This document shows, piece after piece, positions 1,400 to 31,539 of a DNA stretch of 32,184 nucleotides. The stretch is taken from assembly GCF_004010195.1 (NCBI RefSeq), contig NC_057718.1, positions 47,170,116 to 47,202,299 of the forward strand. Direction: 5' to 3'. How positions within the stretch are numbered: position 1 is the stretch's first letter; every line of letters begins with the position of its first letter. The notes under the pieces are model-generated. The model ran no database searches, was not told the origin of the DNA, and was given only the letters and a program-made list of their open reading frames with translations. Position numbers and translations under genes: made by a program. Source of the stretch: Chiloscyllium plagiosum. Lineage: Eukaryota.

Positions 1400-2050
1400 A
1401 CTGTATTGACTTAACCTGAGAAGATCAAGAAGGTACAGTTTACTTTGTTACAAACAGACAAGATAACATTTGTCACTTTGCTAAAAGCTGTTTCAATACA
1501 ATGGCAGGTGCTGAGGGTAACCTACTGAAGAATTCAAAGTTACTGAGTCTCTGAAAAGGAGGATTTATCAGGTGACAATATGCTTGAAGACTTTGAAGAG
1601 TAGGTGGACATTGGAGACGAGGTGATAGTTTGAATGATGGAGGAGTTGCTGGTTGTTTGTTTTTTTTTGAGAACAATAATGACGGCAGATTGGAAGGGAA
1701 GGGTAACAAATTGAGGAAAGAGAAACATTAAGAATTTCAGTTAATGTGATAATCAGAAAGGGAAGTTGGTTGATTAGCAACCATGTGGGAACAGAGTCAA
1801 GGGAGTAACAGGTTGGTATCATGGATAAAATAAGCTCAGAGAGGGCTGATGGAAAAGAAATCAGTGTAGAATGTAAGTTTAGAACTTGGAGCAAAGAGAG
1901 ACTTAAGAGGAATTTTGGACTGGTGGATGAAAGAAAGGGTGGCTAATAGCAGTAACAGTTGATTATATAGCCTCAATTTCATGACAAATAATTCCATAAG
2001 CTTCTCAATCTTGTTTTTGAAGAAGGGTATGATAATCTCTGAGCCCTGAG
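1400..2050 (-). mobile_element. Decayed L2-type LINE ORF2 fragment
   Basis: ORF 1568-1894 includes SMIPTCYSLDSVPTWLL...ILNVSLSS, resembling the L2 pre-RT motif (C-x-LDPIPT...IIN-SL-SG). Confidence 0.7.
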
Positions 2051-2234
2051 GGAATCATTAATTAATCTCCTGGTGGAGTTCGATAAGTATGAATTCTTTT
2101 AGTAACTGGACTGACCAACTAGAATTCATCACCTGAGTAGAGTAGAAAGTGAGGTCTGCAGACGCTGGAGATCAAAGCTGAAACTTTATTGCTGGAACAG
2201 CACAGCAGGTCAGGCAGCATCTAGGGAACAGAAG

Positions 2235-2270
2235 ATTCGACGTTTCGGGCACATGCCCTTCTTCAGGAAT
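2235..2270 (-). ncRNA. Minimal type I hammerhead ribozyme, copy A (TATDN3 sense strand)
   Basis: Reverse complement reads ATTC-CTGAAGA-A-GGGC-ATGT-GCCC-GAAA-CGTC-GAAT. Confidence 0.8.
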
Positions 2271-2340
2271 GAGCAGAGAGTGTTCAGCAGGAGAAGATAA
2301 AAGGTAGGGAGGAGGGACTTGGACTGAACACTCTCTGCTC

Positions 2341-2376
2341 ATTCCTGAAGAAGGGCATGTGCCCGAAACGTCGAAT
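2341..2376 (+). ncRNA. Minimal type I hammerhead ribozyme, copy B
   Basis: Stem I ATTC/GAAT; core CTGAAGA 2345-2351; stem II GGGC/GCCC; GAAA 2365-2368; predicted cleavage after GUC at 2372. Confidence 0.8.
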
Positions 2377-2768
2377 CTTCTGTTCCCTAGATGCTGCCTG
2401 ACCTGCTGTGCTGTTGTTCATTTCTGTGAATCCAAGACGCATTTTCTTAGATGAGGTGAATAAAACTATTCAAGTTATTCTAGGTGTTATCTCTATAATA
2501 AATAATTGCAGCTCTAGCACTAATCCCAGTGGCACTCTACTCACTCCAGGTTGCCTCCTTGAAATTTCCTAACAACACCCCAACCCGAATCCCTCCAGCC
2601 CGGCACCGCCTTCCTGACCTGCAGTCTTCTTCTTGACCTCTCCGCCTCCACCCTACTCCGACCTATCACCTTCACCTTGACCTCTTTCCACCTATCACAT
2701 TTCCAACGCCCCTCCTCCAAGTCCCTCCTCCCTACCTTTTATCTTCTCCTGCTGAACACTCTCTGCTC

Positions 2769-2804
2769 ATTCCTGAAGAAGGGCATGTGCCCGAAACGTC
2801 GAAT
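2769..2804 (+). ncRNA. Minimal type I hammerhead ribozyme, copy C
   Basis: Identical to copy B; predicted cleavage after 2800. Confidence 0.8.
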
Positions 2805-2977
2805 CTTCTGTTCCCTAGATGCTGCCTGACCTGCTGTGCTGTTCCAGCAATAAAGTTTCACCTGAGTAGAGTGCCTACCTCTGAGCCAGGAGGCCGATGT
2901 TCAAGTCCCATCTGCTCCAGAAGTGTGTAATAACATCTCTGAGAAGGTTGGTTCAAAGTTATCGCATAAAGCAGATA

Positions 2978-3135
2978 CAGTGCATTGCCCACAGTGGGCT
3001 TGGCATTTATACTTTTAATTAGCTGCATTGGTGATTACTGGTGGTGGTTAACAGATAAAAAAACTCACGGTGATTTGGTGGTGGGAAATTCACTTCATTG
3101 TGTGCTGTAACATTTCCGGATGTAGAGGAAAAAAA
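2978..3135 (+). mobile_element. L1-Tx1 LINE 3' UTR fragment with A tail
   Basis: Similar to 4470-4610 (gtgatttggtggtgggaaa...taacatttccgga...A-run); bracketed by AAAGCAGA on both sides. Confidence 0.7.
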
Positions 3136-3364
3136 AGCAGACCCAGAAAGCCCTTGTGGCACAGTGTCCCTATCTCGGTTGTGGAGGCCTGAGTTCAAGT
3201 CTCAATTGCTCCAGAGGTATGTAATAACATCTCTGAACAGGCTAATTTTAAGAAACTAAAGCAGACCGTGTGAGAGCTCTTGTAGTGCAGAGGTACTGTC
3301 CCTACAGGTTCAAGTCCGATCTGCTGCAGGTGGGTGTCATAACATCTCTGAATAGATTGATACA

Positions 3365-3582
3365 CGAGGCTCAATCTCCTCCTGCTCTCCCTATCCCTCC
3401 CTCACTGTTGATGGTTTGCATTACCCGTAATGGGCTTTACATGAAAACATCTAATTGGCTGCACAGCTGATTTACTTGTGGTGAATAGTAGGTAGAAAAA
3501 AATGTCACAGTGCTTTGGTGATGGAAAAGCCACTTGGTTATGTGTGATAACATTTCCGGATTAAAAAAAATGAAAAAAAGTT
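3365..3582 (+). mobile_element. L1-Tx1 LINE 3' UTR fragment with A-rich tail
   Basis: Similar to 4420-4610 (aattggctg...tttggtgatggaaaag...taacatttccgga, A-runs). Confidence 0.7.
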
Positions 3583-3961
3583 ATTAAGCAAATATGGAAG
3601 CTCTTGTGGTACAGTGGTAGTTTCCCTACCTCTGGATCAGGAAACCTGGGTTCAGATCCCACCAGCTCCAGAGGTGCATCATAACATGTATGAATGTGTT
3701 GATGAGAAAACATTATAAGGTGATGGCTGGCTCAGCTATACACTGGACCATGAATAAGACTGTTTCAAGTCCCATGTACTCCAGAGGTGTGTGATGGCAT
3801 CGCTGGATAGGTTGATTACTAAATTTAAAAAAAACTTTGTGGTGCTGTGGAAGTGTCCTTACCTCTCATTCTGGAGGCCTGGGTTCAAGTTCTAACTGCT
3901 CCAAGAGATGTGTAGTACCATCGCTGAATAGGTCGATTAGAAAATATATAAAGCAGACCCA

Positions 3962-4610
3962 CGCACAGCCCAACTGCTTATTTTGTGGCACTGCGGAGGC
4001 CGTAGATCATGTTTATATTTGTTGTTGATGATTGCCCTCCCTTCTTAGTTATTTAAAAATATCTTTTGTTAAGAAGTTTATTGCACTTCAGCCCCATGCT
4101 CCTGATCTTTGAACATCTGGTGCAGAGGGATGTGCGCACATCAGTGGACCCCTCGTGGGTATGCTCCTGGGCTTGGCAAAGTTGGCGATAAACAGTCAGC
4201 AGTCTGTGGAGTGAGTAATCTCTGCTGACTGTCTGCCTGTTCTGTGGTTACATTCATGTTTGGGTATCACTGAAGGAGGTGCACATGGTATCGTTCAAAG
4301 CTTTCAAAGCGTTTAGAGACAGGTGAGTACTGTGAGGGATATTTCCCTCACTGACTCGATTTTGATTTATCCCCTTCCCTCAACCCCAACCCCCCTCACC
4401 ACTCCACCCCCCCAAAATGGCCGACTCACTTTTGATGTTTTGCACTGTACTTTAAGGGCTTCTGCACATAAATATCCAATTGGCTGTATGGTGGTTTACT
4501 GGTGTTTGTTGCTGGTTGTGAACAAATAAAGTTATAGTGATTTGGTGGTGGGAAAGCTGTTCGGTTGTATGAGTTAACACTTCTAGATATGAAAAACAAA
4601 AGGAACAGAA
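3962..4610 (+). mobile_element. 5'-truncated L1-Tx1 LINE (ORF2 C-terminus and 3' UTR)
   Basis: Encodes CLFCGTAEAVDHVYIC (CxxC...H...C zinc knuckle) and, frameshifted, LLIF and LLGLAKLAIN; A-rich tail; perfect 14-bp TSD ATAAAGCAGACCCA (3948-3961, 4611-4624). Confidence 0.85.
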
Positions 4611-4744
4611 ATAAAGCAGACCCAAGAACTTTTGTGGTACAGTGGTATGACCCTACCACTGAACCCGGAACCGTGGGTTCAAGTCCGACCTGCTCCAAGA
4701 GCTGCGTAGGAACATCACTGAACAGGTTGATTAGAAAATATATT

Positions 4745-5135
4745 TTGGGCATCCGGTGCAAAGGGATGTGGGCAGTTCAGTGTACCTCCTCATGGATCTG
4801 CTCGTGGGTCTGGCCAAGTTGGCTATTAACAGGTCCAGATAGTAGACTGGAGGTGGTCATTTCTGCTAACTGCCTGCCCCTCTTCCAAGACTAAATTCTT
4901 GCTTGGGAGTCCTTGGAGAGGGAGCATGCAGTGTCTGCCAATACTCTCAATGCCTTTTAGAGATGGTGGGATATAGTGCTTTTCTCTCTCCATCCAACTC
5001 CATTTTGATTTAGCCCCTTTCTTCCTCTGTACTCCTCACCATTTGATGGCAACAAGCTGGATACGTAAATATTCAACTGGACACAAGAGTGATTTACTAG
5101 TGTGAGTTGGTAGTTACAAATAAAGTCACATTGAT
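4745..5135 (+). mobile_element. Another 5'-truncated Tx1 LINE copy of the same family
   Basis: Homologous to about 4110-4540 (ctggccaagttggctattaacagg vs ttggcaaagttggcgataaacag); begins right after the last SINE unit. Confidence 0.75.
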
Positions 5136-5302
5136 ATTTCCTGATCTGCAAAGATCCAGAGAAAACTGTATATGTTTCATGACCTGTCAGTATCTGCCAG
5201 GATGCCAGCCACCTGAACTTTCCTGACTTCATCCTTGTTTCTTTCAAGAATTAATCATTACTGACCAAAAATGTTTTCTTCCTGAAAGCTTCACTAATGT
5301 CC

Positions 5303-5425
5303 TTTAGGAAAAGAAATCTGCTGTTCTTACCTGGTCTGGCCTACATGTTTGACCAGCAATTAGGGATGGACAAGAAATGTTAGCCGAGCCAGCAACATCC
5401 ACATCCCATAAATGAATAAAGTGTA
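5303..5425 (+). mobile_element. 3' fragment of a SINE/LINE tail family
   Basis: Tail gcaattagggatggac...cacatcccataaatgaataaa recurs reverse-complemented near 6330, 11425 and 12330. Confidence 0.6.
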
Positions 5426-6329
5426 AAAGAGAGAGCGCCCATGTGTATGCGGGTGTCTTTGATTGGTTTGCGTGTGAATGTGTATGAGAGCAGTAGGGTA
5501 GCAAGACTAGAAGAATATGCACACTTCTAGTGTCAGTACTAATAGTAGAAGTCTTTCAGTTAAAGCTGAGAGTTTAAAATTTATTTTCAAGTTACTGGTC
5601 TCCACCAACATCATAACAAGCATCAGAAGGCAATAAACTCAGAGGAACTTACAATTACTTTAAAGCAAGAAGTCCTCTATACTAATGAGTATCACAGCTG
5701 TGTTTGTAAATTGCTGTATTGGTTAATGAGTGAATGCCTGGGTAGATGTACGAAATGTACAAACACACTTTGTCCATGAAATCTAGAACCTGGCCTTATT
5801 CATCAGTAAGCATTGAATAACTACTGAGTATGCCATTGCACTGCTTTCAGAGAACAATAGAAATTGCTTAATGTAAGAGAATTTTGGTCCATCTAGTTTC
5901 CCTTCTACCATCCCATCAATTGCAATGATACAATGATAATGGAGTTATTGAATAATCATAACCACTAATTGCTATCAACTGGACTATAAAAAAACTAAAA
6001 TAACAAAGAAATACCCAATGAGATCCAAAGATCCAAAGTCAATTTGCTCTTCTCTGGCATATATAATGTTTCAAATTACTGTACTCATTTCGCATATATC
6101 AAAATGTCATCCTATGAAAAAAAATCAATTTTTAAAAAAATCTAAGTCATCTCAAGTCCCAAAATTACAGAACTTTAAAAGTTACACATTTAAAATAAAT
6201 AATTGAATTACATATCATATAACTTAAAGAGTTGTAGAAAATTTGCATTTATTATTCCAAATTAAATCACCAGTGAATCTGGTCTGTATAATTTACTTGG
6301 GTATGCTCTATATGTTTTACATTTACTTT

Positions 6330-6575
6330 ATGCATTCATGAGATGTGGGCATCACTGGCCAGTCCAGCATTTATCACCTATCCCTAATTATCTTGGAGAA
6401 GGTGATGGTGAGCTGCCCTCTTGAATTGCGGCAGTCTTTGGGACGTGTGTGTATCCATAATGCTATAAGGAAGGGAATTCAGGATATTGACCCAGCAACA
6501 AGAAATATTGTTTCAAAAGAGAATGCTGCGTAAGTTAGAAGGAATCTTGTAGGTGGTAGTATTCTATTACATCCT
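6330..6575 (-). mobile_element. CR1/L2-clade LINE 3' end
   Basis: Homologous to the starts of 11425-12260 and 12330-12800. Confidence 0.65.
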
Positions 6576-8900: not shown

Positions 8901-9132
8901 AATGAAATAAAAAGTTTGAGAAATGAACAGGAGAAGGGTTACAGAGAAAGATGAATTCAAATTGATGAATCCAAAAATCACAAGATAAAAAGAATTGAAA
9001 AAAAGACATTACAAAAGTTTCTAAAATTTAAAACTGATACGTCTAATGTTATCAAAAACAATTCAAAACCTAAAGCAATGAAACTCCACACTTACATCTT
9101 GAAAAATGACACTGATATTTGCCGGCAATTAC

Positions 9133-9217
9133 CTGCAAAGTGGCTCCACGCTGTTCTTGTGGTAGAGTTCCTTGCACTGGATGAACACCAAGGCATGGTA
9201 GCACAAATCCTGAATAC
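9133..9217 (-). CDS. TATDN3: TATDN3 coding exon 4 (YSGFVLPCLGVHPVQGTLPQEQRGATLQ)
   Basis: Acceptor tttattttcag, donor CAG|gtaatt, 85 nt, phase 2/0 compatible with exon 3; TatD GVHP motif. Confidence 0.96.
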
Positions 9218-11424
9218 CTGAAAATAAATAGTCAATACTATTTTGTCAATGAGAAATATAAGCTACATAAAGGAAGCAAAGAAGGTAAATAGGAGTATTA
9301 TACAGGTATTCCTTTTTCTTTAGCGGTTTCAATCATGAAATCTTCACAATGGCATAACCTGCATTCAATGCATTTTAACAGGGCCTACTGTTGTTTAGGC
9401 TGTTTCACACATTATTTTTGTAGGTTAACTTAATGAGCAAATATTCCATTTAACTGAATTGTTACCTAGAATTAACAGCACAGGAACAGATCATTCAGCC
9501 TAACTAGACTATGATGGCATTTATACTCTACATGAGTCTTTTCCTATCTTACTTTCATTTATCAACACTTTCTTCTATTGAGGTCTCTCCCATGCATTCA
9601 CCTAGTGTTGTCTTAAATGTCTCAACTACTCTATGTTATACAAGTCTAACCACGTCAATGCATAAATCTGCAGTGCAAATTATTTATTAGAGAGCACCTG
9701 TTTTATGAGCCTTGGATGCCATCTACTTCAAAATCTATTGAATACTGCAAGTCTACAGATCCTATAGTAATACTGTATCTATCTCAAAGTAGAAATGATT
9801 AATGATGTGTCATCATGAATAGAGAGGACTACTTTCATCTAGTCAAAAGCAAGCTTGGAGTGCTTTATCTATTCTGGTGTTTCCCTACTTCACTTTTCTA
9901 CAATGTAAGTTTAACAATCAAGTTCTGTGACTATATCTGTTTGCAATGTTAATCATGTCAAGTCAGTACAAGTTTAAATATTTTCAAACATTGTTCAACA
10001 CTGTGCAAGTTCTGACAGAACCATACGGGTGGTTTTGTCTGCACTGATTAAAAAAAGTACCATCTTCCTAACAGGTTAGTGTGAATCTACATGTAATTTT
10101 ATAAAATGTGCAAAAGGCAGCCAACAGGGTGAAACAGGATGGAACAGGACAGGAAGAAATTGTGAGAACAAGCTGTCTGAAACAATAATCATTGATGTTG
10201 GCAACCACGAAAGGATCAATACCATAGATATATGATTGATGTTGGAAAGAATGACCAGAAAGAATGACCAGAAATAATATAATGAGTTTAACCAACTTGT
10301 TATTTTTATTAAAAGAAAACTGTATCTTATGAAACAACTGTGGAATATCCTTCAAATAAATAAGTGAAAAACTGTCAAGATATCAACAATGAGCCACATT
10401 ATTTAATCTGTTTTCCACAAACACAAGTTAGTTCAAAACCTTTAAGTCTGCTTGAAAATTAGTTCAGTCTGCTTAGAGCCCATTAAAACCATTTATATGA
10501 AACATTTATTAATGGGGTTTAGAAGTGAAGCATCAGAACTAAGTTTGGTCCTGTCCTCTCCCAACATTTATTTATGTATACTTTTCCAGCAGGAATTAGA
10601 TACTTCCTTTCTAACCTGGGAACACTGCTTTCACTGTCATTCTCGTTTAAATCAATGACTTATCATAAATCAAGAATCAAATCTGAGAGCTTTTGATCTC
10701 TAGCTCAAAACATACCACACAGGGCTTTCACCCACTCAATTATACTGTTCTGTTTCTGTCCGAATTTACGTCATCAAAGATTTGGAATGAAATTGTGTGC
10801 ACAAGTTATATCAAGCAGGAAAATCTGCCAGATTATCACAAAAATCTTCTGCCTGACTCACCACATCAGTAAATTTCTTTCTCATCTGAAATCAAAGAAG
10901 CAATTTTTCTCCTTTGACCAGGCCAAGTATCCATTTAGATTATATTAAGATTTTTTTTAGATTCAGTGACTGGATTTGTTAACAGTGATGATATAGGTTT
11001 GGTATTTCTGATCGATCAGCATCAGCAACTTGTTTGCATGGAGGTTAGAATCGTCAAACAAGAACTTATCTCTGCAAATTGAGCAAACAACAAAATATGC
11101 AATTGGGTACAACATACAGTGGGATGAATTATGAGACTGAAATACAATAAAATAATTAACTGTAATTGTGATATTGGGGGAGACAATTAGATAGGCGCCT
11201 TGTATAAAAATGTGGGATTGGTGATAATTGGGATAGGGAGGAACTATGAGGCAATGAAACCATAAAAGGACATTTAAACGTATCTGTGAGATTAGGTCAG
11301 ACCATTAATTTAACAACATACATCCAAATGTGGTATTCATGATAACACAGGGTGGAGGGGAATTCGAACAGCAACCTATTAGACATCATATTGGGAGACA
11401 GAAAATGATGAAAAGCTTTTTCTA

Positions 11425-12260
11425 TTCATTCATGGAACATGGACATCACTGGCTAGCCCTGAATTGATTGCTCATCCTTAATAGCCTTGGAGCAGGACGT
11501 GATTAATTGCCTTCTTGAATTGCTGTGGTTTTTGGGGTGTAGAGTCCCACAATAGTGTTCAGAAGGAAATTTTAGAAAGTTGACACAGCCAAAATGAAGA
11601 AACAGTAATATAGTTTCAAGTTAGAATAGTGTGGGGCTTGGAGGGAAACTTTCAGATGGTGTTGCTCTGCATCTGCTGCAATTGCTCATCCAGGTAATAG
11701 AGGTCACAGGTTTGGAAGGCGTTGTTGTTAGAAGAAGCTTGATGAATTACTGCAGTGCACTGTACAGATGGGACATACTGCTGCCACTGGGTGTCAGCAG
11801 TGAAGGTAGTGAATATTGAAGGTGATGGATGGGTGCCAATCAAACACTGTACAATGATCAACAACATCCTACACTTCTGACCTTATGATGACAAGAAGGT
11901 CATTGATGAAGCAACTGAAGATGGTTGTCCCCAGGACACTACTTTGAGAAACTCCTGCAGCAATATCTTCAATTGACCTCCAATAACTACAAACATCTTT
12001 ATGCTGAGAATGTCTCCAACTAGTGAGGTTTGCACACAGGAGATACCTATGCAAATTTCCACGTTTTTGAGTAGATGCCAGTTTTGCAGCTATACTGGAA
12101 CAACTTGGATGGGAAAGTTGCTAGTTCTGTAGCCCCATTCATACGTACTCTCACCAGAATGTTTCAGGGTTCGCAGCCGTTGCAGTATCTAATGCCTTCA
12201 GCCATTCTTGATATTGCACACACTGAATCGAATTGGGGCTGGGACCTCAGGAGGAAGTCA
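11425..12260 (-). mobile_element. CR1/L2-clade LINE (RT fragment and 3' end), internally deleted
   Basis: Minus ORF 11869-12054 contains GVSQSSVLGTTIFSCFINDL, the RT motif GVPQGSVLGP..F..FINDL. Confidence 0.8.
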
Positions 12261-12329
12261 GCTGGTGCTGGAAAACCATAGCACAAAGTTTTAGGCAAAC
12301 CTATACTAGATATTTCTAAAAATTTACTC

Positions 12330-12800
12330 ACAGGATGTGAGCATAACTGGCTAGGTAAGAAGTTATTACTAATCCCTAATTGTCCAAGAGAAGGTGGGAT
12401 TGACAATGCTTATTGAACCACTGCAGTCCCCCATGTGGTTTTGGCACACTCACTGTGCTACAGGTACATTCACAATACTGTTAGGGATAAGAGTTCCAGG
12501 ACTTTTACCCAGCATGGTAAAGGATTGGTAATATAGTAAGAAGTCAGGATCACATTTGGCTTGGAGGGAGCTTGAGGGTGATGATGTTCCCATTCATGTG
12601 CTACCATTGTCCTTCTAGGTGCTAGAGGTCAAAGGTATGGAAGACCAGTCTCTGGAACTTTGGTGAGTTGTTGGAGCTTTGTATAGATTGTACATATTGT
12701 CACTATTGTGAGGCAATGTGGCGGGGTGTAAGTGATTGAAGTGCTACTATCAGACCTGGTTTACCCTGGATGGTGTTGACCTTTTTCAGTTGTTGTTGTA
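12330..12800 (-). mobile_element. Second 3' fragment of the same CR1/L2-clade LINE
   Basis: Collinear similarity to 11430-11870. Confidence 0.7.
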
Positions 12801-15548: not shown

Positions 15549-15793
15549 ATTGCTAGATTGCAGTGTATTTTATTTACCCATTCTTAGCTCAATAATAATA
15601 AAGCTGACGTTAATACCTCTGCTAAATCTCATTTAAAGTCAACTATTTCTGCACAAATCTGAATAAAACCAAAGACCCACCAAATCTATACTGGTCCATA
15701 ATACAACACATGATACTTTTAATACTAACAGATCAGATTAAATTAAAAGTTTGGATATTTCGCAAATAACTGCAAACGATATGGTGTACTTAC

Positions 15794-15867
15794 CTCTCTG
15801 AAAGTTCTATAAGCCTTTCAAATTCTCCAGAATGCTCTGCTACTGCCACAAGAGCTAGAAGTCCAGC
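15794..15867 (-). CDS. TATDN3: TATDN3 coding exon 3 (AGLLALVAVAEHSGEFERLIELSE-R)
   Basis: Acceptor cttcacag, donor AG|gtaagt, 74 nt, phase 0/2; resembles human ANVVALVAVAEHSGEFEKIMQLSER. Confidence 0.96.
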
Positions 15868-17861: not shown

Positions 17862-19258
17862 CTCTTCTCATTTATTAATGGGAGCATGAACATAAGGATA
17901 TTTTTCTTTATATATTGTTGTGCAAAATATTTTGTTTGGGAATATACATTCTAGGTTAATAATATCTGATGAAGAAAATTTACTATAGGTCAGTGGATAG
18001 ATAATTTGCTTATAAATTAAGGATACTTTAATAAATAAATTTTATATTTACACAACGTGTATCAGGCAAATGATTCCTTAAATATAGCAGGAAATGTTTA
18101 TTCAGATTTTACATATTTGCTAGCTGCCTTGCCCGGAGCTTCATTCCTTCAATAACTTTCATCCAAATATGTTCAAATTCATAAATTGATGGAAAAAACC
18201 AAGTTTGAATGTCATCTGACATTAAATAGTACAATGAAATAAAAGGGAATAGACAATTGAATAAAACTAAAACATTAAATTCACATTTTTTAAACAATTG
18301 TATTCTGAACAATATAAGACATGAAGGTCACTCTGACATCCCTTTCCTAGTGAAACATATTCAAGGAATTTCCACGTTGTATTTCCTTTACTAAAAAGAT
18401 TTCTCAAACATTAGGAATTTATGAACGTAGAGCCCCTCAAACCAATTCCACAATTGTATTAGGTTATAACTGATCTGCATATTGACTCCATTCATCCTGT
18501 TTTGCTCCACATGCTAGCTCATATCATCGAAAAAAAATTCTTTCAACCTTAATCCTGAACGTGCTTCATTCTGTGTAGTTGTTTCTCCACTACTGTCTGA
18601 AGTTGTTTGTGAAGTTACCAAAAGGGCTTATCTTAATTCTTGTAGACTCCAGGATAAAGCAAAGGAGAAAGTATCCATATAAAACAATCACAATATTATC
18701 TGAGAACATTGTCTATTACCCCAGAAGATATATACTCAAGCTTGCAATGTTTTGTATCAATTTTGTATTTTATTTTTACATTTATCAGAATAAAGGGCGA
18801 CTGTCCTTTCACTAATTTTCTCTGCAAATTATTATCCCTCTTTTCTTAAAGGCGTTTACTTTTCCTGGAGTATGACTCCATGGGCTCTCATTTCCCTCTA
18901 GTATCCAGGTGGTTACTATTCATTCACACTCTTTGACTATGTCTAATTGGAAGTCACCTTCAAGAGTACCTGATGTGAAACACAGAATGGTTGGGGAACA
19001 TAGTGCTCTGTAAAGTGTGCTAAAGTCAGGAAATTTATGCAGGTGGGAATTTGGTGCAGAACAGGAAGTAGGTGCTGCTGTTTATCCTCTCATCTATACC
19101 TTCAGTAGTTGATAAGTATTTTCCTTTGTTCTTTAAACTAAAAGACTTGATACTACTTCCAAGCTAATCTAAGCTAATAACTAATTAAATAATTGAATAA
19201 ATGGGAATTGTGCCTGAGACAATTCTGTCCGCTGTACACCGAGGTCTAGTTCTGGATT

Positions 19259-19466
19259 AGGTCAGAAGTCACACGACACCAAGTTATAGTCCAACAGGTT
19301 TATTTGAAAGCACAAGCTTTTGGAGTGCTGCTTCTTCAACAGGTGAGGTGGTAAAGGAGCAGCATGCCGAAGGCTTCTGATTTCAAATAAACCTGTTGGA
19401 CTATAACCTGGTGTTGTGTGATCTCTGGCCTTGTCCACCTAGTCCAACACCAGCACCTCCACATCA
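19259..19466. mobile_element. Short fold-back Penelope-like terminal element
   Basis: Inverted arms (cacgacaccaagttatagtccaacaggtttatttgaaa / tttcaaataaacctgttggactataacctggtgttgtg) plus tail; 12-bp TSD TAG(T/C)TCTGGATT (19247-19258, 19467-19478); decayed hammerhead at the centre. Confidence 0.8.
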
Positions 19467-22862: not shown

Positions 22863-23558
22863 GTTCTGGATGTAGGTTTGCTCGCTGCGCTGGAAGGTTC
22901 ATTTTCAGACGCTCCATCACCATATTAGGTGTCATCATCAGTGAGCTTCCGGATGAAGCACTGGTGGCATGGCCCACTTTCTATTTGTGTATTTAGGTTT
23001 CCTTGGATTGGTGATGTCATTCCTGTGGTGACATCATTTCCTATGGTGATGTCATTTCCTGTTCTTTTTCTAAGGTGGTGGTAAATGGAATCCAATTCAA
23101 TGTATTTGTTGATAGAGTTCTGGTTGGAAAGCCATGCTTCTAGGAATTCTCATGCATGTCTCTGTTTGATCTGTCCTAGGATGGATGTGTTGTCCCAGTC
23201 GAAATGGTGTCCTTCCTCATCAACAAGCCACAGAAAGACATGATAGATAAGGAAGGACATGACTCATGAGAATTCCTAGAAGCATGGCATTCCAACCAGA
23301 AATCCATCACCAAACACATTAACTTGGATCCCATTTACCACCCCCTGAGAAAAAGAACAGGAAATGACATAACCAACCCAAGGAAACCCTAAATACATAA
23401 ATAGAAAGTGGGCCATACCACCAGTGCTTCATTCGGCAGCTCATTGATGATGTCACCTAGTATGGTGACAAAACGTCTGAAAATGAACCTTCCAGCTCAG
23501 CGAGCAAACCTACATCCAGAACCTCAACCTGAGCTACAAATTTTCTCAAAATTCGCTA
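22863..23558. mobile_element. Penelope-like element with about 300-bp inverted arms, a GIY-YIG C-terminal remnant and two decayed hammerheads
   Basis: Arms gttctggatgtaggtttgctcgctg / cagcgagcaaacctacatccagaac plus tail ctcaacctgagctacaaa; minus strand encodes FDWDNTSILGQ...EFLEAW; hammerhead cores mutated (TTGATGA...AAAACGTC at 23444-23477). Confidence 0.85.
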
Positions 23559-26671: not shown

Positions 26672-27034
26672 CTTACCCGGAGTACAAAAACTAACGCACT
26701 TCCGTTTTTGTCGTCGCTCCTTATGCTGAGCACGTTGGGCAGTCTTTCCCTAATGCCCGTGCTTTATATTCTGATGAGTTTTGGAGAAAACCATTGGATT
26801 TAATTTTCACAAAAATAAAAGCTGTCTGACTGGGATTGTGCATTCTGTACGTGATTTGAGACTGGTTGAATAATGAATCAGCCGGCCGGAACTGATATGA
26901 GAGGTTGTGTTTCTCACCGGAACTTTTGGGTGATGTTTCAGACAGGATGCAAACCTGAGCGGGTAGAGGCGGGAAAGTGAGCTCGCGAGCCGGCGGTTTG
27001 AGGATTTGAACGACCCAACGGGGTGGCCCGGAGG

Positions 27035-27154
27035 ATGGAGGCCCGGGTTGGCCGCGTGCGTTGCTCCTCGAAGCGCGCGGTTTTGGCTGCGCTCGAGCGT
27101 CTGGCCGAGCCGCTACGGAAACGGCTGAAAGACTTCCCGCAGGAGGCCCAACAA
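27035..27154 (+). CDS. NSL1: NSL1 (MIS12 kinetochore complex subunit) coding exon 1 (MEARVGRVRCSSKRAVLAALERLAEPLRKRLKDFPQEAQQ)
   Basis: Kozak-like aggATGG; RVRCSSKRAV resembles human RVRCTSKRAV; phase-0 donor CAA|gtgagt; head-to-head with TATDN3 as in human. Confidence 0.92.
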
Positions 27155-27369
27155 GTGAGTGAAGGCGCAAGGTGGGGGCCCCGGGCCCCACTCCAGGGGG
27201 AGAGAGCCCCACCCCAGAGGGAGAGGACTCGGGGGAAAGGCTGTAGGCGAGTGCAGATAGCTTGAATGGTGGTGCAGATGAGGAGAGAAGAGTCACTGGG
27301 GTGCAGTGAGTAGAGAGAGAGGGGTTAATAAAGAGACCAGGGTTTGGCTGGAACAAGGTTGGACTTAGA

Positions 27370-28329: not shown

Positions 28330-28414
28330 ATATTTGAGACTGCTGTTCAGGAGAATATCCTTGTCAATGGCCTATTATGGCAAGAAGTCTCAGAGGAAGA
28401 TGAGCTCAAATATG
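28330..28414 (+). CDS. NSL1: NSL1 coding exon 2 (IFETAVQENILVNGLLWQEVSEEDELKY)
   Basis: Acceptor tctgttttcag, donor G|gtatgg; resembles human TFESAVQENISINGQAWQEAS; exon 3 not found before the window end. Confidence 0.93.
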
Positions 28415-29059
28415 GTATGGAATTAAATAAATTCAGTCCAATTTTCTTTGCAATCTCTAGATACTAATCACATTTGGAGCAAATTGATGTGTTAAGGCAG
28501 TTGTTGCGCTTTCAGAAAAATCAAAACTTTCTAAAGCAGTCCAATTACATTTCCCCTGTGCAAATTCATTGTTGCTTTTGTCTAAACAAATCTTGAAAAA
28601 TGGTTTTAGAGGAAATGGTGTTCTGAAAATATTTTTACTGACCCCAATATGATAAATAAAGTAAGACCTGGAGGTTGAATGACCTTTGTAACTGAATTCA
28701 GTTACATTGAAATATATCACCTGTCATTTTTTGTCAGAATATTCATCCAGATTGGGGCTCTGCCTATAAATGGGCAGACGTTTTATATATGGTTAACATT
28801 GTCACAAGTCAGCAGTCTTCAGCACAAATATGTTTATTTATTAAGCTCAATCATAAAATTTAAGATATTATTTGGCACAAAGAATGGATGATATGAGTTA
28901 TCACAATGATAATAGGGTCCATCATGGTCAGGTACCATCCATCTCACACCATGCAGCCTCCAATTAGTAAGTTGCTTATGTGCTACAGTTGATCTGTTTT
29001 AGTGTGTCCTTGGAACTTGAGTACCTTCTCAACAAGTAGATGGAATCCATTGCACAAGA

Positions 29060-29700
29060 CAGGCAGGCAAGCAAACACAACAAATGAAAAGAAAGTTGTC
29101 AGGTCTGTGTACATGGAATTGAGTGACAACTTGAAGGTAGTCATTAAGGCACGCGAGGCAATTATGATTGACATGGAATTTGATCGAGTAGTGTAAACAC
29201 GTTTTCCATACAAGAGACCAAACTTTCCAAGAGCAGGTCACTGAACAAAATGATATGTTAATCTGGCAGGGAAGAATTCCGTGAAAATGCATAAGCAAAG
29301 TGTAGATTCTGTTGGGAGGAGCTTGTTACTCTTCATAGTGGTGAGACCTGGACAAATATGTTAGACAGAAGAAAAGGCTGAACTGCTCCCAACTTTGCTG
29401 TCTCCGATATATGGCACTTGGCAAGCCAAGGTTATCAATTCAGTTGTATTTATAGAGTGCTAATTTGATCAGCACACTCAGGAAGTAGGACGTACTTGGA
29501 CAATAAACTTCTACCCAAAAACCTGCTGTACAGTCAGTTGCCACCGTGTTGCAAACCTGAGTGTCCCATGTCTGTGCTACAAAGGCAGCTGCAAGCAAGG
29601 TATGTAGATGGTGGACATGGAAGCTGGCAACCACTTCCTCTCCATTGCGGAGTCACCAGATATGAGGCACTGTTTTGTTGCACATGGTGCTGATCTGATC
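29060..29700 (+). mobile_element. Internally deleted, decayed RTE-clade LINE
   Basis: Endonuclease N-terminus remnant (AIMIDMEFDR...QETKL...WQG) and C-terminal DNKLLPKNLLYSQL (RTE R-L-P-K-x-x-L-Y-x-E-L motif). Confidence 0.7.
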
Positions 29701-30936
29701 CATTCCACAAAACTGCGCTGTTGCAGTCACTTGAACTACCTTCCACTTCATCTAGATGTCTAAGATGGACTGTGTTTGCAGGAACACCATGTACAAAACT
29801 CTGGATAAGGGGGGCAAAAACGTACTCAACGTTGCTCTTGACTTGATGGCCACCTTTGCGTGTGATTGCATCAAGTTACGTGTAGACCCTCTGTGCACAC
29901 ACCGTGTTACTATTTACTGAGGTTTTACCTGTCCTTGGTGTTATAGGATGCGCTGCGTAGTCAACCTTTCTGTATCGTGAAGAAATTTAAGAAAAACACC
30001 TTTGACCACATGCCCATCAGGAATTAGTCAGCATGTAGCATCTGAGACTCTGCGGCAAAAGGAGAGGGTGGATCCGGTCACGTGGCTCCATGAGCAGACT
30101 GTCAGTCATTTGGCAAAATGCCTCATCACCAGAACTTTCCAAATAGCATCATCATTGCTTGGCTGGTGGTGGGAATAGCATTACCTGTGAGAGTCGAGAG
30201 TGTGGTGCTGGAAAAGCACAGTAGGTCAGGCAGCATCCAAGGAGCAGGAGAATCTATGTTTTGGGCAAAAACCCTTCATTGGGAAGGATGCTGAGGGGGT
30301 GGTGAGATAAATGAGGGGGCATGGGGCTGGGGGAAAGGTAGCTGAGAGTGCGATAGGTAGATGGCGGTGGGGGTAATAGTCATCGGTCGGAGAGGAGGGT
30401 GGAGCGGATAGGTGGGAAGGAAGATGGACAGGTCATGAGAGCGTGCCGAGTTGGAAGATTGGAGCTGGGATAAGGTGGGGGAGGGGATGTGAAACTGGTG
30501 AAATCCACATTGATGCTGTGGGTTGAAGGGTCCCGAGGCGGAAGATGAGGCGTTCTTCCTCCAGGCATTTGGTTGTTAGGGAGTGGCGATAGAGGCAGCC
30601 CAGCACCTGCATGTCCTTGACGGAGTGGGAGGGAAAATTAAGTGTTTGGTCACTGGGTAGTGGGGTTGGTTAGTGCGGGTGTCCCGGAGATTTTGTCTGA
30701 AGCGCTCTGTGAGTAGGCATCCTGTCTCCCCAATGTAGAGGAGACCACATCATGAGCAATGGATACTGTAAGGTGACACTTTGGTGGATGAAGACGGCTC
30801 CTTTGGGGCCTGGAACAGAGGTGATGGGGAAGGTGTGGGCACAGGGTTTGCAATTCCTGCGGGGGCAGGGGAAGGTGCCAGGAGGGGAGGCTGGGTTGGT
30901 GGTGGGCCTGGATAAGGGAGTTGCAGAGGGAATGGT

Positions 30937-31539
30937 TTAGGGTGTAGGTTTGCTCACTGAGCTGTAGGTTTGATATCCAGCCGTTTCATTACCTGAGGGG
31001 TTGATAGATGGTATCTGGATCTATGTGTTTGTTTATGGCATTGTGCCAGGCCTCTAGGAATTCTCTGGCATGCCTTTGCCAGAGACAAAAAAAGATACAG
31101 ACTGCAGATTCCTCAAGAACAAACCACGACAAGCAGACCAAACACAGCCAGAAACGCTAACCACCTTACCATACATCAAAGAAGTTTCAGAAATGACAGC
31201 CAGACTACTAAGACCCCTCGGAATCCTAGTAGCACACAAACCCACCAACACTCTCAAACAAAAACTAACAAACTTAAAAGACCCAGTACAACCCATGGAC
31301 AAAACCAATGTCATCTACAAAGTTCCATGCAAGGACTGCCGCAAACACTACGTAGGACAACCAGGAAATGATACAACCACAAACCCCAGGAACCCCATCC
31401 AGGACAAACATTTAAATAGAAAGCAGGAGACAACAGCTTCGCTTCACTTGGAGGTCGCCCCTGATGATGTTACCTAGCCAGGTAATGAAACGTCTGGATA
31501 TCAAACCTACACCCTAAGCCTCAACCTGAGCTACAAACC
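30937..31539 (+). mobile_element. Internally deleted Penelope-like element with a short inverted 5' arm, nested in the previous element
   Basis: 16-bp TSD TTGCAGAGGGAATGGT (30921-30936, 31540-31555); ORF 31070-31477 has TLPYIKEVSE...NVIYKVPCKDCRKHYVGQ (GIY-YIG start); tail ctcaacctgagctacaaa shared with 22863-23558. Confidence 0.9.
31458..31497 (+). ncRNA. Minimal hammerhead ribozyme (core intact, stems slightly decayed)
   Basis: CTGATGA 31461-31467; stem II GTTACC/GGTAAT; GAAA 31487-31490; GTC 31492-31494; first stem I pair mismatched. Confidence 0.6.

Follow-up and report, generated by a model that had tools for sequence, protein, structure and literature searches.

The closest described parallel to the locus presented here comes from crocodilians, where tandem copies of SINEU-3 are described as sandwiching a target-site duplication (TSD) of 16 nt at a target that is shared with Tx1-Mar (Kojima 2015, PMC4494074). 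The same source interprets these tandems as products of sequential insertion; it reports weak site preference for the sister SINEs of SINEU-3, with 13% and 23% of flanks bearing the target, and takes presence of the target in >20% of flanks as the criterion for a target-specific family (PMC4494074). Dewa, of the Tx1 clade, is described as occupying the spacer of tRNA-Leu (PMC3706591), and Tx1L of Xenopus laevis is reported to insert in Tx1D, its purified endonuclease nicking almost only its target (PMC1950540, PMC4494074). TSD-(SINE-TSD)n arrays of highly similar units are described in the blood clam (PMC11481361), and SINE-derived satellites in squamates (PMC10702118). The cartilaginous-fish SINEs HE1, SacSINE1 and SINE2-1_CM, as described, possess conserved central domains and CR1/L2 tails (PMC3747384, PMC5499810).

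We present an array of SINE and LINE insertions in a 32,184-nt stretch of the Chiloscyllium plagiosum contig NC_057718.1, hereinafter the window. We posit that it is probably a stack, formed at a single self-regenerating site by successive rounds of target-primed reverse transcription, that comprises LINE pieces together with SINE passengers. Outside data were sequencing reads and contigs from four runs, aligned to the window at 80% likeness; the contig runs represent three related species sharing orthologs and are counted as one observation.

Architecture of the array

A 2.3 kb region (2874-5145) holds seven tRNA-like SINE units interspersed with four LINE 3' pieces on the same strand, ordered along the + strand as S1, LINE A, S2, S3, LINE B, S4, S5, S6, LINE C, S7 and LINE D (Table 1). 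This amounts to about 11 insertions, and self-blast of the window recovered no copy of either element in the 30 kb outside the array. A sequence-only reading of this DNA had described about seven head-to-tail Pol III-type units and four same-orientation LINE 3' fragments truncated at differing points. Both descriptions are borne out by seven related + strand units with A/B-box matches and by four + strand pieces, A to D, with four different 5' ends in self-blast and alignment. The same reading had ended the last LINE fragment at 5135; this boundary has to be moved, since an internal deletion interrupts piece D and 9/10 letters of the LINE terminus are still matched at 5136-5145.

Table 1. Features of the array and its flanks, in window coordinates
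Feature	Positions	Strand	Basis and remarks
Left flank: decayed LINE ORF2 relic	1450..2143	-	translation; nearest Atlas cluster RVT_1 (20% of members, score 0.89), a lead
Young inverted-repeat insertion	2129..2872		148-nt arms, 99% complementary; directly left of S1
SINE unit S1	2874..2965	+	alignment; head absent or unrecognizable; copies elsewhere align from 2874 on
Target/TSD copy, 12/14	2966..2979	+	motif comparison
LINE piece A	2980..3131	+	self-blast, alignment; 3' UTR end and A-rich tail
Target/TSD copy, 13/14	3132..3145	+	motif comparison
SINE unit S2	3146..3255	+	alignment, A/B boxes
Target/TSD copy between two SINEs, 11/14	3256..3269	+	motif comparison
SINE unit S3	3270..3362	+	alignment, A/B boxes; internal deletion, shortened tail
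LINE piece B	3363..3582	+	3' UTR and A-rich tail; left junction 9/14, not clearly above chance
Possible decayed target copy, 8/14	3583..3596	+	chance level; register is the sole support
SINE unit S4	3597..3712	+	alignment, A/B boxes
SINE unit S5	3713..3828	+	homologous from the B-box (3762) onward; 5' part of other origin
SINE unit S6	3829..3947	+	alignment, A/B boxes
Left TSD of LINE piece C, ATAAAGCAGACCCA	3948..3961	+	exact repeat
LINE piece C	3962..4610	+	frameshifted ORF2 C-terminus, CCHC finger (3975-4025), 3' UTR, A-rich tail
Right TSD of LINE piece C	4611..4624	+	same letters as the left TSD
SINE unit S7	4625..4742	+	alignment, A/B boxes
LINE piece D	4743..5145	+	ORF2 end and 3' UTR; internal deletion near the terminus; left junction without motif
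Right flank	5146..5290		single-copy depth (bin 5159-5243)

The SINE units

The seven SINE units, each about 110 nt long, are 65-80% identical in all 21 pairs, and in all of them (7/7) both an A-box and a B-box are recognizable, each within 0-2 mismatches of the general box consensus. In the three intact units S4, S6 and S7, the box starts are 41-42 nt apart, a tRNA-like spacing. These boxes and their spacing, together with the dispersal and the unlike flanks documented below, characterize the element as a SINE of the tRNA-derived (SINE2) type. ARAGORN called 0 tRNA genes, Rfam, searched up to E 5, matched nothing in the array, snRNAs included, and Tandem Repeats Finder made no call over the array. 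Folding of three SINE units and three LINE ends gave z values of -1.7 to +0.9, and hence we claim no structure for either. The local units diverge by 11-18% from their local consensus with star-like similarity, and they stem from at least two subfamilies. The 5' part of S5 (3713-3761) is unlike the other heads and has its own A-box-like word at 3728; S5 is possibly a template-switch chimera.

The 3' ends of the SINE and the LINE are alike at 15 of 22 positions, which reached p ~0.003 in one of six settings, chosen post hoc, and 0.06-0.75 in the other five; the summed test of this likeness was null. A tail shared between the two elements is hence treated here as a lead.

A recurrent 14-nt motif and its register

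The two copies of the 14-mer ATAAAGCAGACCCA around piece C constitute a perfect TSD that cannot be extended, as had been noticed from the letters; in 3000 control pairs, repeats arising by chance extended to 10 nt and no further. The best ungapped match to this 14-mer is 12/14 at the junction at 2966, 13/14 at 3132, 11/14 at 3256 and 14/14 at the two junctions of piece C, with the other six junctions giving 9/14 (3360), 8/14 (3583) and 6-7/14 (four cases). Among 20,000 random zones, 8/14 was reached in 20%, 9/14 in 5% and 11/14 in 0.08%. Five of the 11 junctions clearly carry the motif (at least 11/14), and six are weak or at background. The exact word AAAGCAGACC occurs four times in the window, always within the array, and allowing one mismatch gives nine matches in the window versus 2.67 expected.

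The motif recurs at three kinds of junctions, namely SINE/LINE, LINE/SINE and SINE/SINE, and pieces A and C each have a copy of it on both sides along with an A-rich tail. Piece A had been read as bracketed by an 8-nt repeat: the bracketing stands, with copies of 12/14 and 13/14, and its extent is to be enlarged to the whole 14-mer. The unoccupied motif noticed at about 3258 corresponds to the 11/14 copy at the S2/S3 junction (3256-3269). The degenerate AAGCAAA at 3586, proposed as a third site, amounts to an 8/14 match and taken alone lies at chance level.

A-rich 3' ends of LINE pieces (A and C) and SINE tails (S1, S2 and S6) abut the 5' edge of the motif. On the other side, the tRNA-like stem starts 3, 3, 4 and 6 nt past the end of the motif in S7, S4, S2 and S3, in agreement with the earlier observation that the head of a unit begins a few nt downstream. 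An offset of this size agrees with the genome-wide SINE 5' consensus, in which a few leading G/A-rich letters precede the stem. Taken together, the register and these leading letters place the SINE 5' end at the same position as the 5' end of piece C, leaving no spacer beyond the TSD. As the spacer between units is thus the TSD, from the last base of one SINE to the first base of the next, the SINEs are better read as passengers at the same site than as neighbors of the target.

The LINE pieces

ORF2 C-terminal sequence, frameshifted on translation, is present in pieces C and D. A CX2CX7HX4C (CCHC) finger at 3975 in piece C is the sole match to CX2CX7-8HX3-4C in the six frames of the whole window; as such fingers are common to other LINE clades, it does not single out Tx1. 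We take the pieces to be putatively Tx1-type from the pattern of the ORF2 C-terminus, and the label Tx1-like used here derives from this pattern and the CCHC motif rather than from a tree. The best protein relative is a predicted whale shark protein without a name (E 3.7e-4), which is indicative of a cartilaginous fish, assigns no clade to the LINE, and for which the Atlas was uninformative. The other protein match (2 in the representative search) was to a repetitive protein aligned over many short stretches only, and was set aside. Pfam was blank for piece C and for 5/5 other pieces of the window, as were all three homolog searches with LINE pieces and the left flank; Pfam and these searches matched no named Tx1 protein. 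The pieces contain no reverse transcriptase or endonuclease, and the homolog searches recovered no full-length relative. There were no tblastn-confirmed viral loci, and PDB was blank.

Pieces C and D are 70% identical (191/271) over the ORF2 end, and raw-read depth is ~31-119 over D's segment versus 0.3-6 over the matching part of C. These two features suggest that more than one LINE lineage probably took part, and they render doubtful the earlier assignment of all fragments to one L1-Tx1 family.

At 3966-4040, the zinc finger of piece C is entered by 553 raw reads, with an agreement of 0.95, that arrive through an open frame upstream; they differ from piece C at fixed places, and contig depth in this segment is only ~20-30x single copy. 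These reads represent an abundant, homogeneous and probably young related LINE family.

Independent insertion versus local duplication

Arrays of the form TSD-(SINE-TSD)n may arise through unequal recombination between TSDs, with LINEs inserting later or being co-duplicated, and such arrays have been described in a bivalve (PMC11481361). Two local features are of the kind that this process would produce: S6 and S7 form the closest SINE pair, at 80%, and the base just before the stem is A in all five intact local heads as against G in the genome-wide consensus. The latter could equally reflect a site-biased subfamily. An extra A common to S6 and S7 is carried by 101 of the 103 raw reads placed at 4698; it is thus a mark of a subfamily widespread in the genome, not of the locus. 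Moreover, the local LINE 3' UTRs are only 62-73% identical in all six pairs, whereas B, C and D match non-orthologous pieces on other contigs at 78-87%, counting mismatches only (five records among the matches listed); piece A had no non-orthologous match among those listed. Hence B, C and D are each closer to copies elsewhere than to their neighbors, the reverse of what had been named as evidence against repeated insertion, namely local copies that are closest to each other. The four LINE truncation points are distinct, the SINE similarity is star-like, and the bivalve arrays, as described, consist of highly similar units (PMC11481361). Given the UTR identities, the differing 5' ends and the widespread extra A, we consider local duplication an unlikely explanation of this locus. 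The TSD, the recurrence of the motif and the UTR identities instead uphold the earlier proposal that a Tx1-like LINE inserted at one motif repeatedly, independently and on the same strand.

The insertions are uniformly old. Among the contigs listed, orthologs from two related species cover almost the entire array at 96-97%, with a gap at 4060-4085 in one of them, and neither an insertion polymorphism nor an empty site was seen. As the orthologs are this similar and the units are 11-18% from their local consensus, all of the insertions are, by sequence divergence, much older than the species split and common to the three related species.

Dispersal of the SINE and carriage of the motif

The SINE family is dispersed and present in high copy. 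Raw-read depth is ~1200 over S1 versus 0.1-0.3 in unique bins, and contig depth displays the same thousands-fold SINE excess in the three related species, depth not being equivalent to copy number. Past the SINE ends listed, 324-634 contigs in each run continue into unlike flanks, with an agreement of 0.53-0.58. Pattern scans for SINE copies gave 0 matches in genome contigs and 0 in viral contigs, collections that are without host DNA. Of two scans of metagenome contigs, also without host DNA, one gave 0 matches, and the five matches of the other were rejected: none blast-matches the window, and three to four are microbial tRNA 3' ends. Plasmid blastn with the window sequence was blank.

This dispersal bears on the possibility that tandem Pol III units pre-existed and that a Dewa-like Tx1 family specific for their spacer inserted between them. 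Such a family would have a described counterpart in Dewa, which is reported to target the tRNA-Leu spacer (PMC3706591), and the array does contain one LINE-free SINE-motif-SINE succession (3256-3269). Further, the joints listed include some, in a few contigs of each species, that lead from a SINE end back to a SINE start (4741 to 2879 in 2, 2 and 3 contigs; 3240 to 2899 in 1, 1 and 4). However, with no tRNA gene called and a family dispersed at thousands-fold depth, the units do not represent an array of genes that was there first, and Rfam found nothing in the array that would point to one. The 65-80% likeness of the units, the lack of a tandem-repeat call and the presence of at least two subfamilies also speak against an array that came first, as does the occurrence of the motif at only one of the three SINE-SINE junctions. 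Finally, sequential target-primed insertion yields TSD-only spacing by construction, whereas a pre-existing array requires that its spacer coincide exactly with the TSD. We hence regard this scenario as quite improbable. The earlier proposal of a Tx1 family that targets a motif just upstream of the SINE-like unit thus survives in respect of repeated insertion at one motif, and is not supported in respect of the spacer of a pre-existing array.

Genome-wide, the commonest letter at position -5 relative to the SINE stem is T in all three runs. In simulations with the local offsets, T at this position was obtained in 0/500 trials at 50% motif carriage, in 0.2-4% at 40% and in 2-13% at 30%, implying that most SINE copies do not lie behind the motif. 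The letters of the motif are also absent from the SINE 3' consensus, a test that is biased in that motif-bearing copies could align further and drop out. One non-orthologous contig of 3586 nt from a related species, available as coordinates and not as letters, matches at 85% over 3129-3255, a segment that comprises the A-run, the motif and S2.

A locus-specific hot spot would account for the scarcity of the motif upstream of SINE copies: an L1/Tx1 enzyme of loose specificity could favor A-rich junctions, with the motif being a sequence that happened to flank the first insertion and was copied anew each time, and no family-wide target. The resemblance of C and D to separate lineages would be at home in this scenario, and so would a founder target that is no recognizable multicopy sequence, the depth of the right flank being single-copy. 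On the other hand, placing about 11 insertions in 2.3 kb, with neither element elsewhere in the window, would be extreme for a loose enzyme. The register is constant to within a few bases, and the second contig with motif and SINE is again unexpected for a single hot spot, which we accordingly judge distinctly unlikely.

Flanks, candidate founder sites and neighboring features

To the left, the array abuts a young insertion whose ends carry a 15-bp direct repeat (2129-2143, 2858-2872) and which contains nested 92-nt perfect repeats. We take this insertion to be Penelope-like, and the decayed ORF2 relic that precedes it to be presumably L2/CR1-like. In the right flank, a gapped motif-like word is present at 5150-5158, with the ungapped match being 7/14, which is chance level. 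The minus-strand translation of this flank may resemble the region preceding the L2-type part in the left flank, and a founder site in one old L2-type copy spanning both flanks is accordingly a lead. A second lead, from sequence similarity, is that the founder site may have been in the ORF2 of a sister LINE: positions 5184-5240 match 30099-30160 weakly, at 71% and E 0.002, with a score of 20, the highest among 60 shuffles being 19. A third lead, a founder site in the TATA box of an LTR (TATAAA, 3947-3952), finds little backing in the flanks: a LINE relic lies on the left and single-copy DNA on the right, AATAAA is absent from 5146-5290, and neither side displays LTR marks.

Several other features were observed in the window. 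A second frameshifted LINE ORF2 relic lies on the + strand at 29340-30170, and we assume it to belong to another L1/Tx1-like family. A very abundant repeat occupies 5290-5410, with a raw depth of >1500 over 5290-5400, and the segments 6329-6442, 11423-11536 and 12321-12434 belong to one very abundant repeat family. Additional inverted-repeat elements with arms 82-97% complementary are found at 19253-19437, 22863-23522 and 30934-31511. Short exon-like frames are present at 9127-9219 and 15793-15867 on the - strand and at 28331-28417 on the + strand, along with a GC-rich stretch at 26950-27250. We take the minus-strand frames to be TATDN3-like and the plus-strand frame to be NSL1-like, arranged head to head around the GC-rich stretch; Pfam confirmed none of the three. 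If these identities hold, the array would lie in or just past the minus-strand TATDN3-like gene.

A model for the stack and its implications

On the observed TSD, register, independence and age of the insertions we build a model of the stack, for which we infer the enzyme, the positions of its nicks and the delivery of the SINEs by the same machinery. A Tx1-type ORF2 protein, following the mechanism of L1/Tx1 elements, would nick the bottom strand immediately to the left of ATAAAGCAGACCCA, priming on the A-rich end of an RNA. A cut of the top strand ~14 nt downstream would then duplicate the motif in each event, as is seen for piece C and, in decayed form, for piece A. Every duplicate would present a new site, such that later events would occur in the same orientation and register. 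The cargo would be either the 5'-truncated RNA of the LINE itself or, in trans, RNA of the dispersed ~110-nt tRNA-like SINE, a delivery suggested by the coincidence of SINE ends with the edges of the TSD. Junctions without the motif may reflect target truncation or later decay. The events would have involved at least two LINE lineages and at least two SINE subfamilies, and would have ended before the split of the three related species; the SINE is also found away from the array site. Speaking against the stack, two listed paralogs of the 3' UTR of piece C, possibly a single locus, stop at 4602, before the motif. A different tail length would also explain this stop.

A bolder version of the model is that an undescribed shark SINE of ~110 nt with a tRNA head shares its tail with a sequence-specific Tx1 element, and that a subfamily of this SINE rides to a family-wide 14-bp site, generating mixed stacks genome-wide; we consider this version unlikely. 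If genome-wide confirmation were obtained, a new target word and a tRNA-headed passenger would join the known specificities of Tx1-type elements, from which site-directed endonucleases can be drawn. The shared tail, if true, would link an abundant SINE to its mobilizer. On the stack model, the array would also illustrate a route to SINE "arrays" that does not involve tandem duplication. Crocodilians have already provided a published example of this principle, and the local copies are long dead and fixed in three species, leaving little to assay.

Comparison with known systems

In the open-licence literature, we found no paper on the SINE of the array or on its target, families that may already be in Repbase/Dfam; nor did that literature, considered apart from Repbase/Dfam, yield a tRNA-headed, tail-sharing partner of a Tx1 element. 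The SINE resembles HE1, SacSINE1 and SINE2-1_CM in its tRNA-type head and its host group, and is set apart by their descriptions: with only ~110 nt, it has no room for a conserved central domain. With the blood clam and squamate arrays, the locus shares direct SINE repeats with one TSD between them, but its units have diverged from each other, belong to a mixture of subfamilies and alternate with LINE pieces that inserted independently. As in the case of Dewa, Tx1-type insertions are found between tRNA-like units; unlike the latter, these units are not tRNA genes but dispersed SINE copies, with the TSD as their spacer. Tx1L furnishes a plausible model for the enzyme, though its target differs and no endonuclease is left in the array.

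The strongest likeness is to SINEU-3 and Tx1-Mar, in that a SINE and a Tx1-type LINE share a site and tandem SINEs sandwich one TSD, here of 14 nt. Specifically, the sequence between S2 and S3 (3256-3269) is a near-copy of the TSD used by piece C. The head differs from that of SINEU-3, being tRNA-like with A/B boxes and without a match to U1/U2 snRNA. The host is a cartilaginous fish, and the evidence here comes from one locus, unlike the preference measured genome-wide in crocodilians. Further, the target of Tx1-Mar is a fixed site in another transposon; the array is bordered by a LINE relic on the left and single-copy DNA on the right, with a weak match within the window. Thus, by analogy, we propose that the array represents a new case of the insertion habit known from crocodilian SINEU-3 and Tx1-Mar, adopted by a SINE that is not itself a SINEU.
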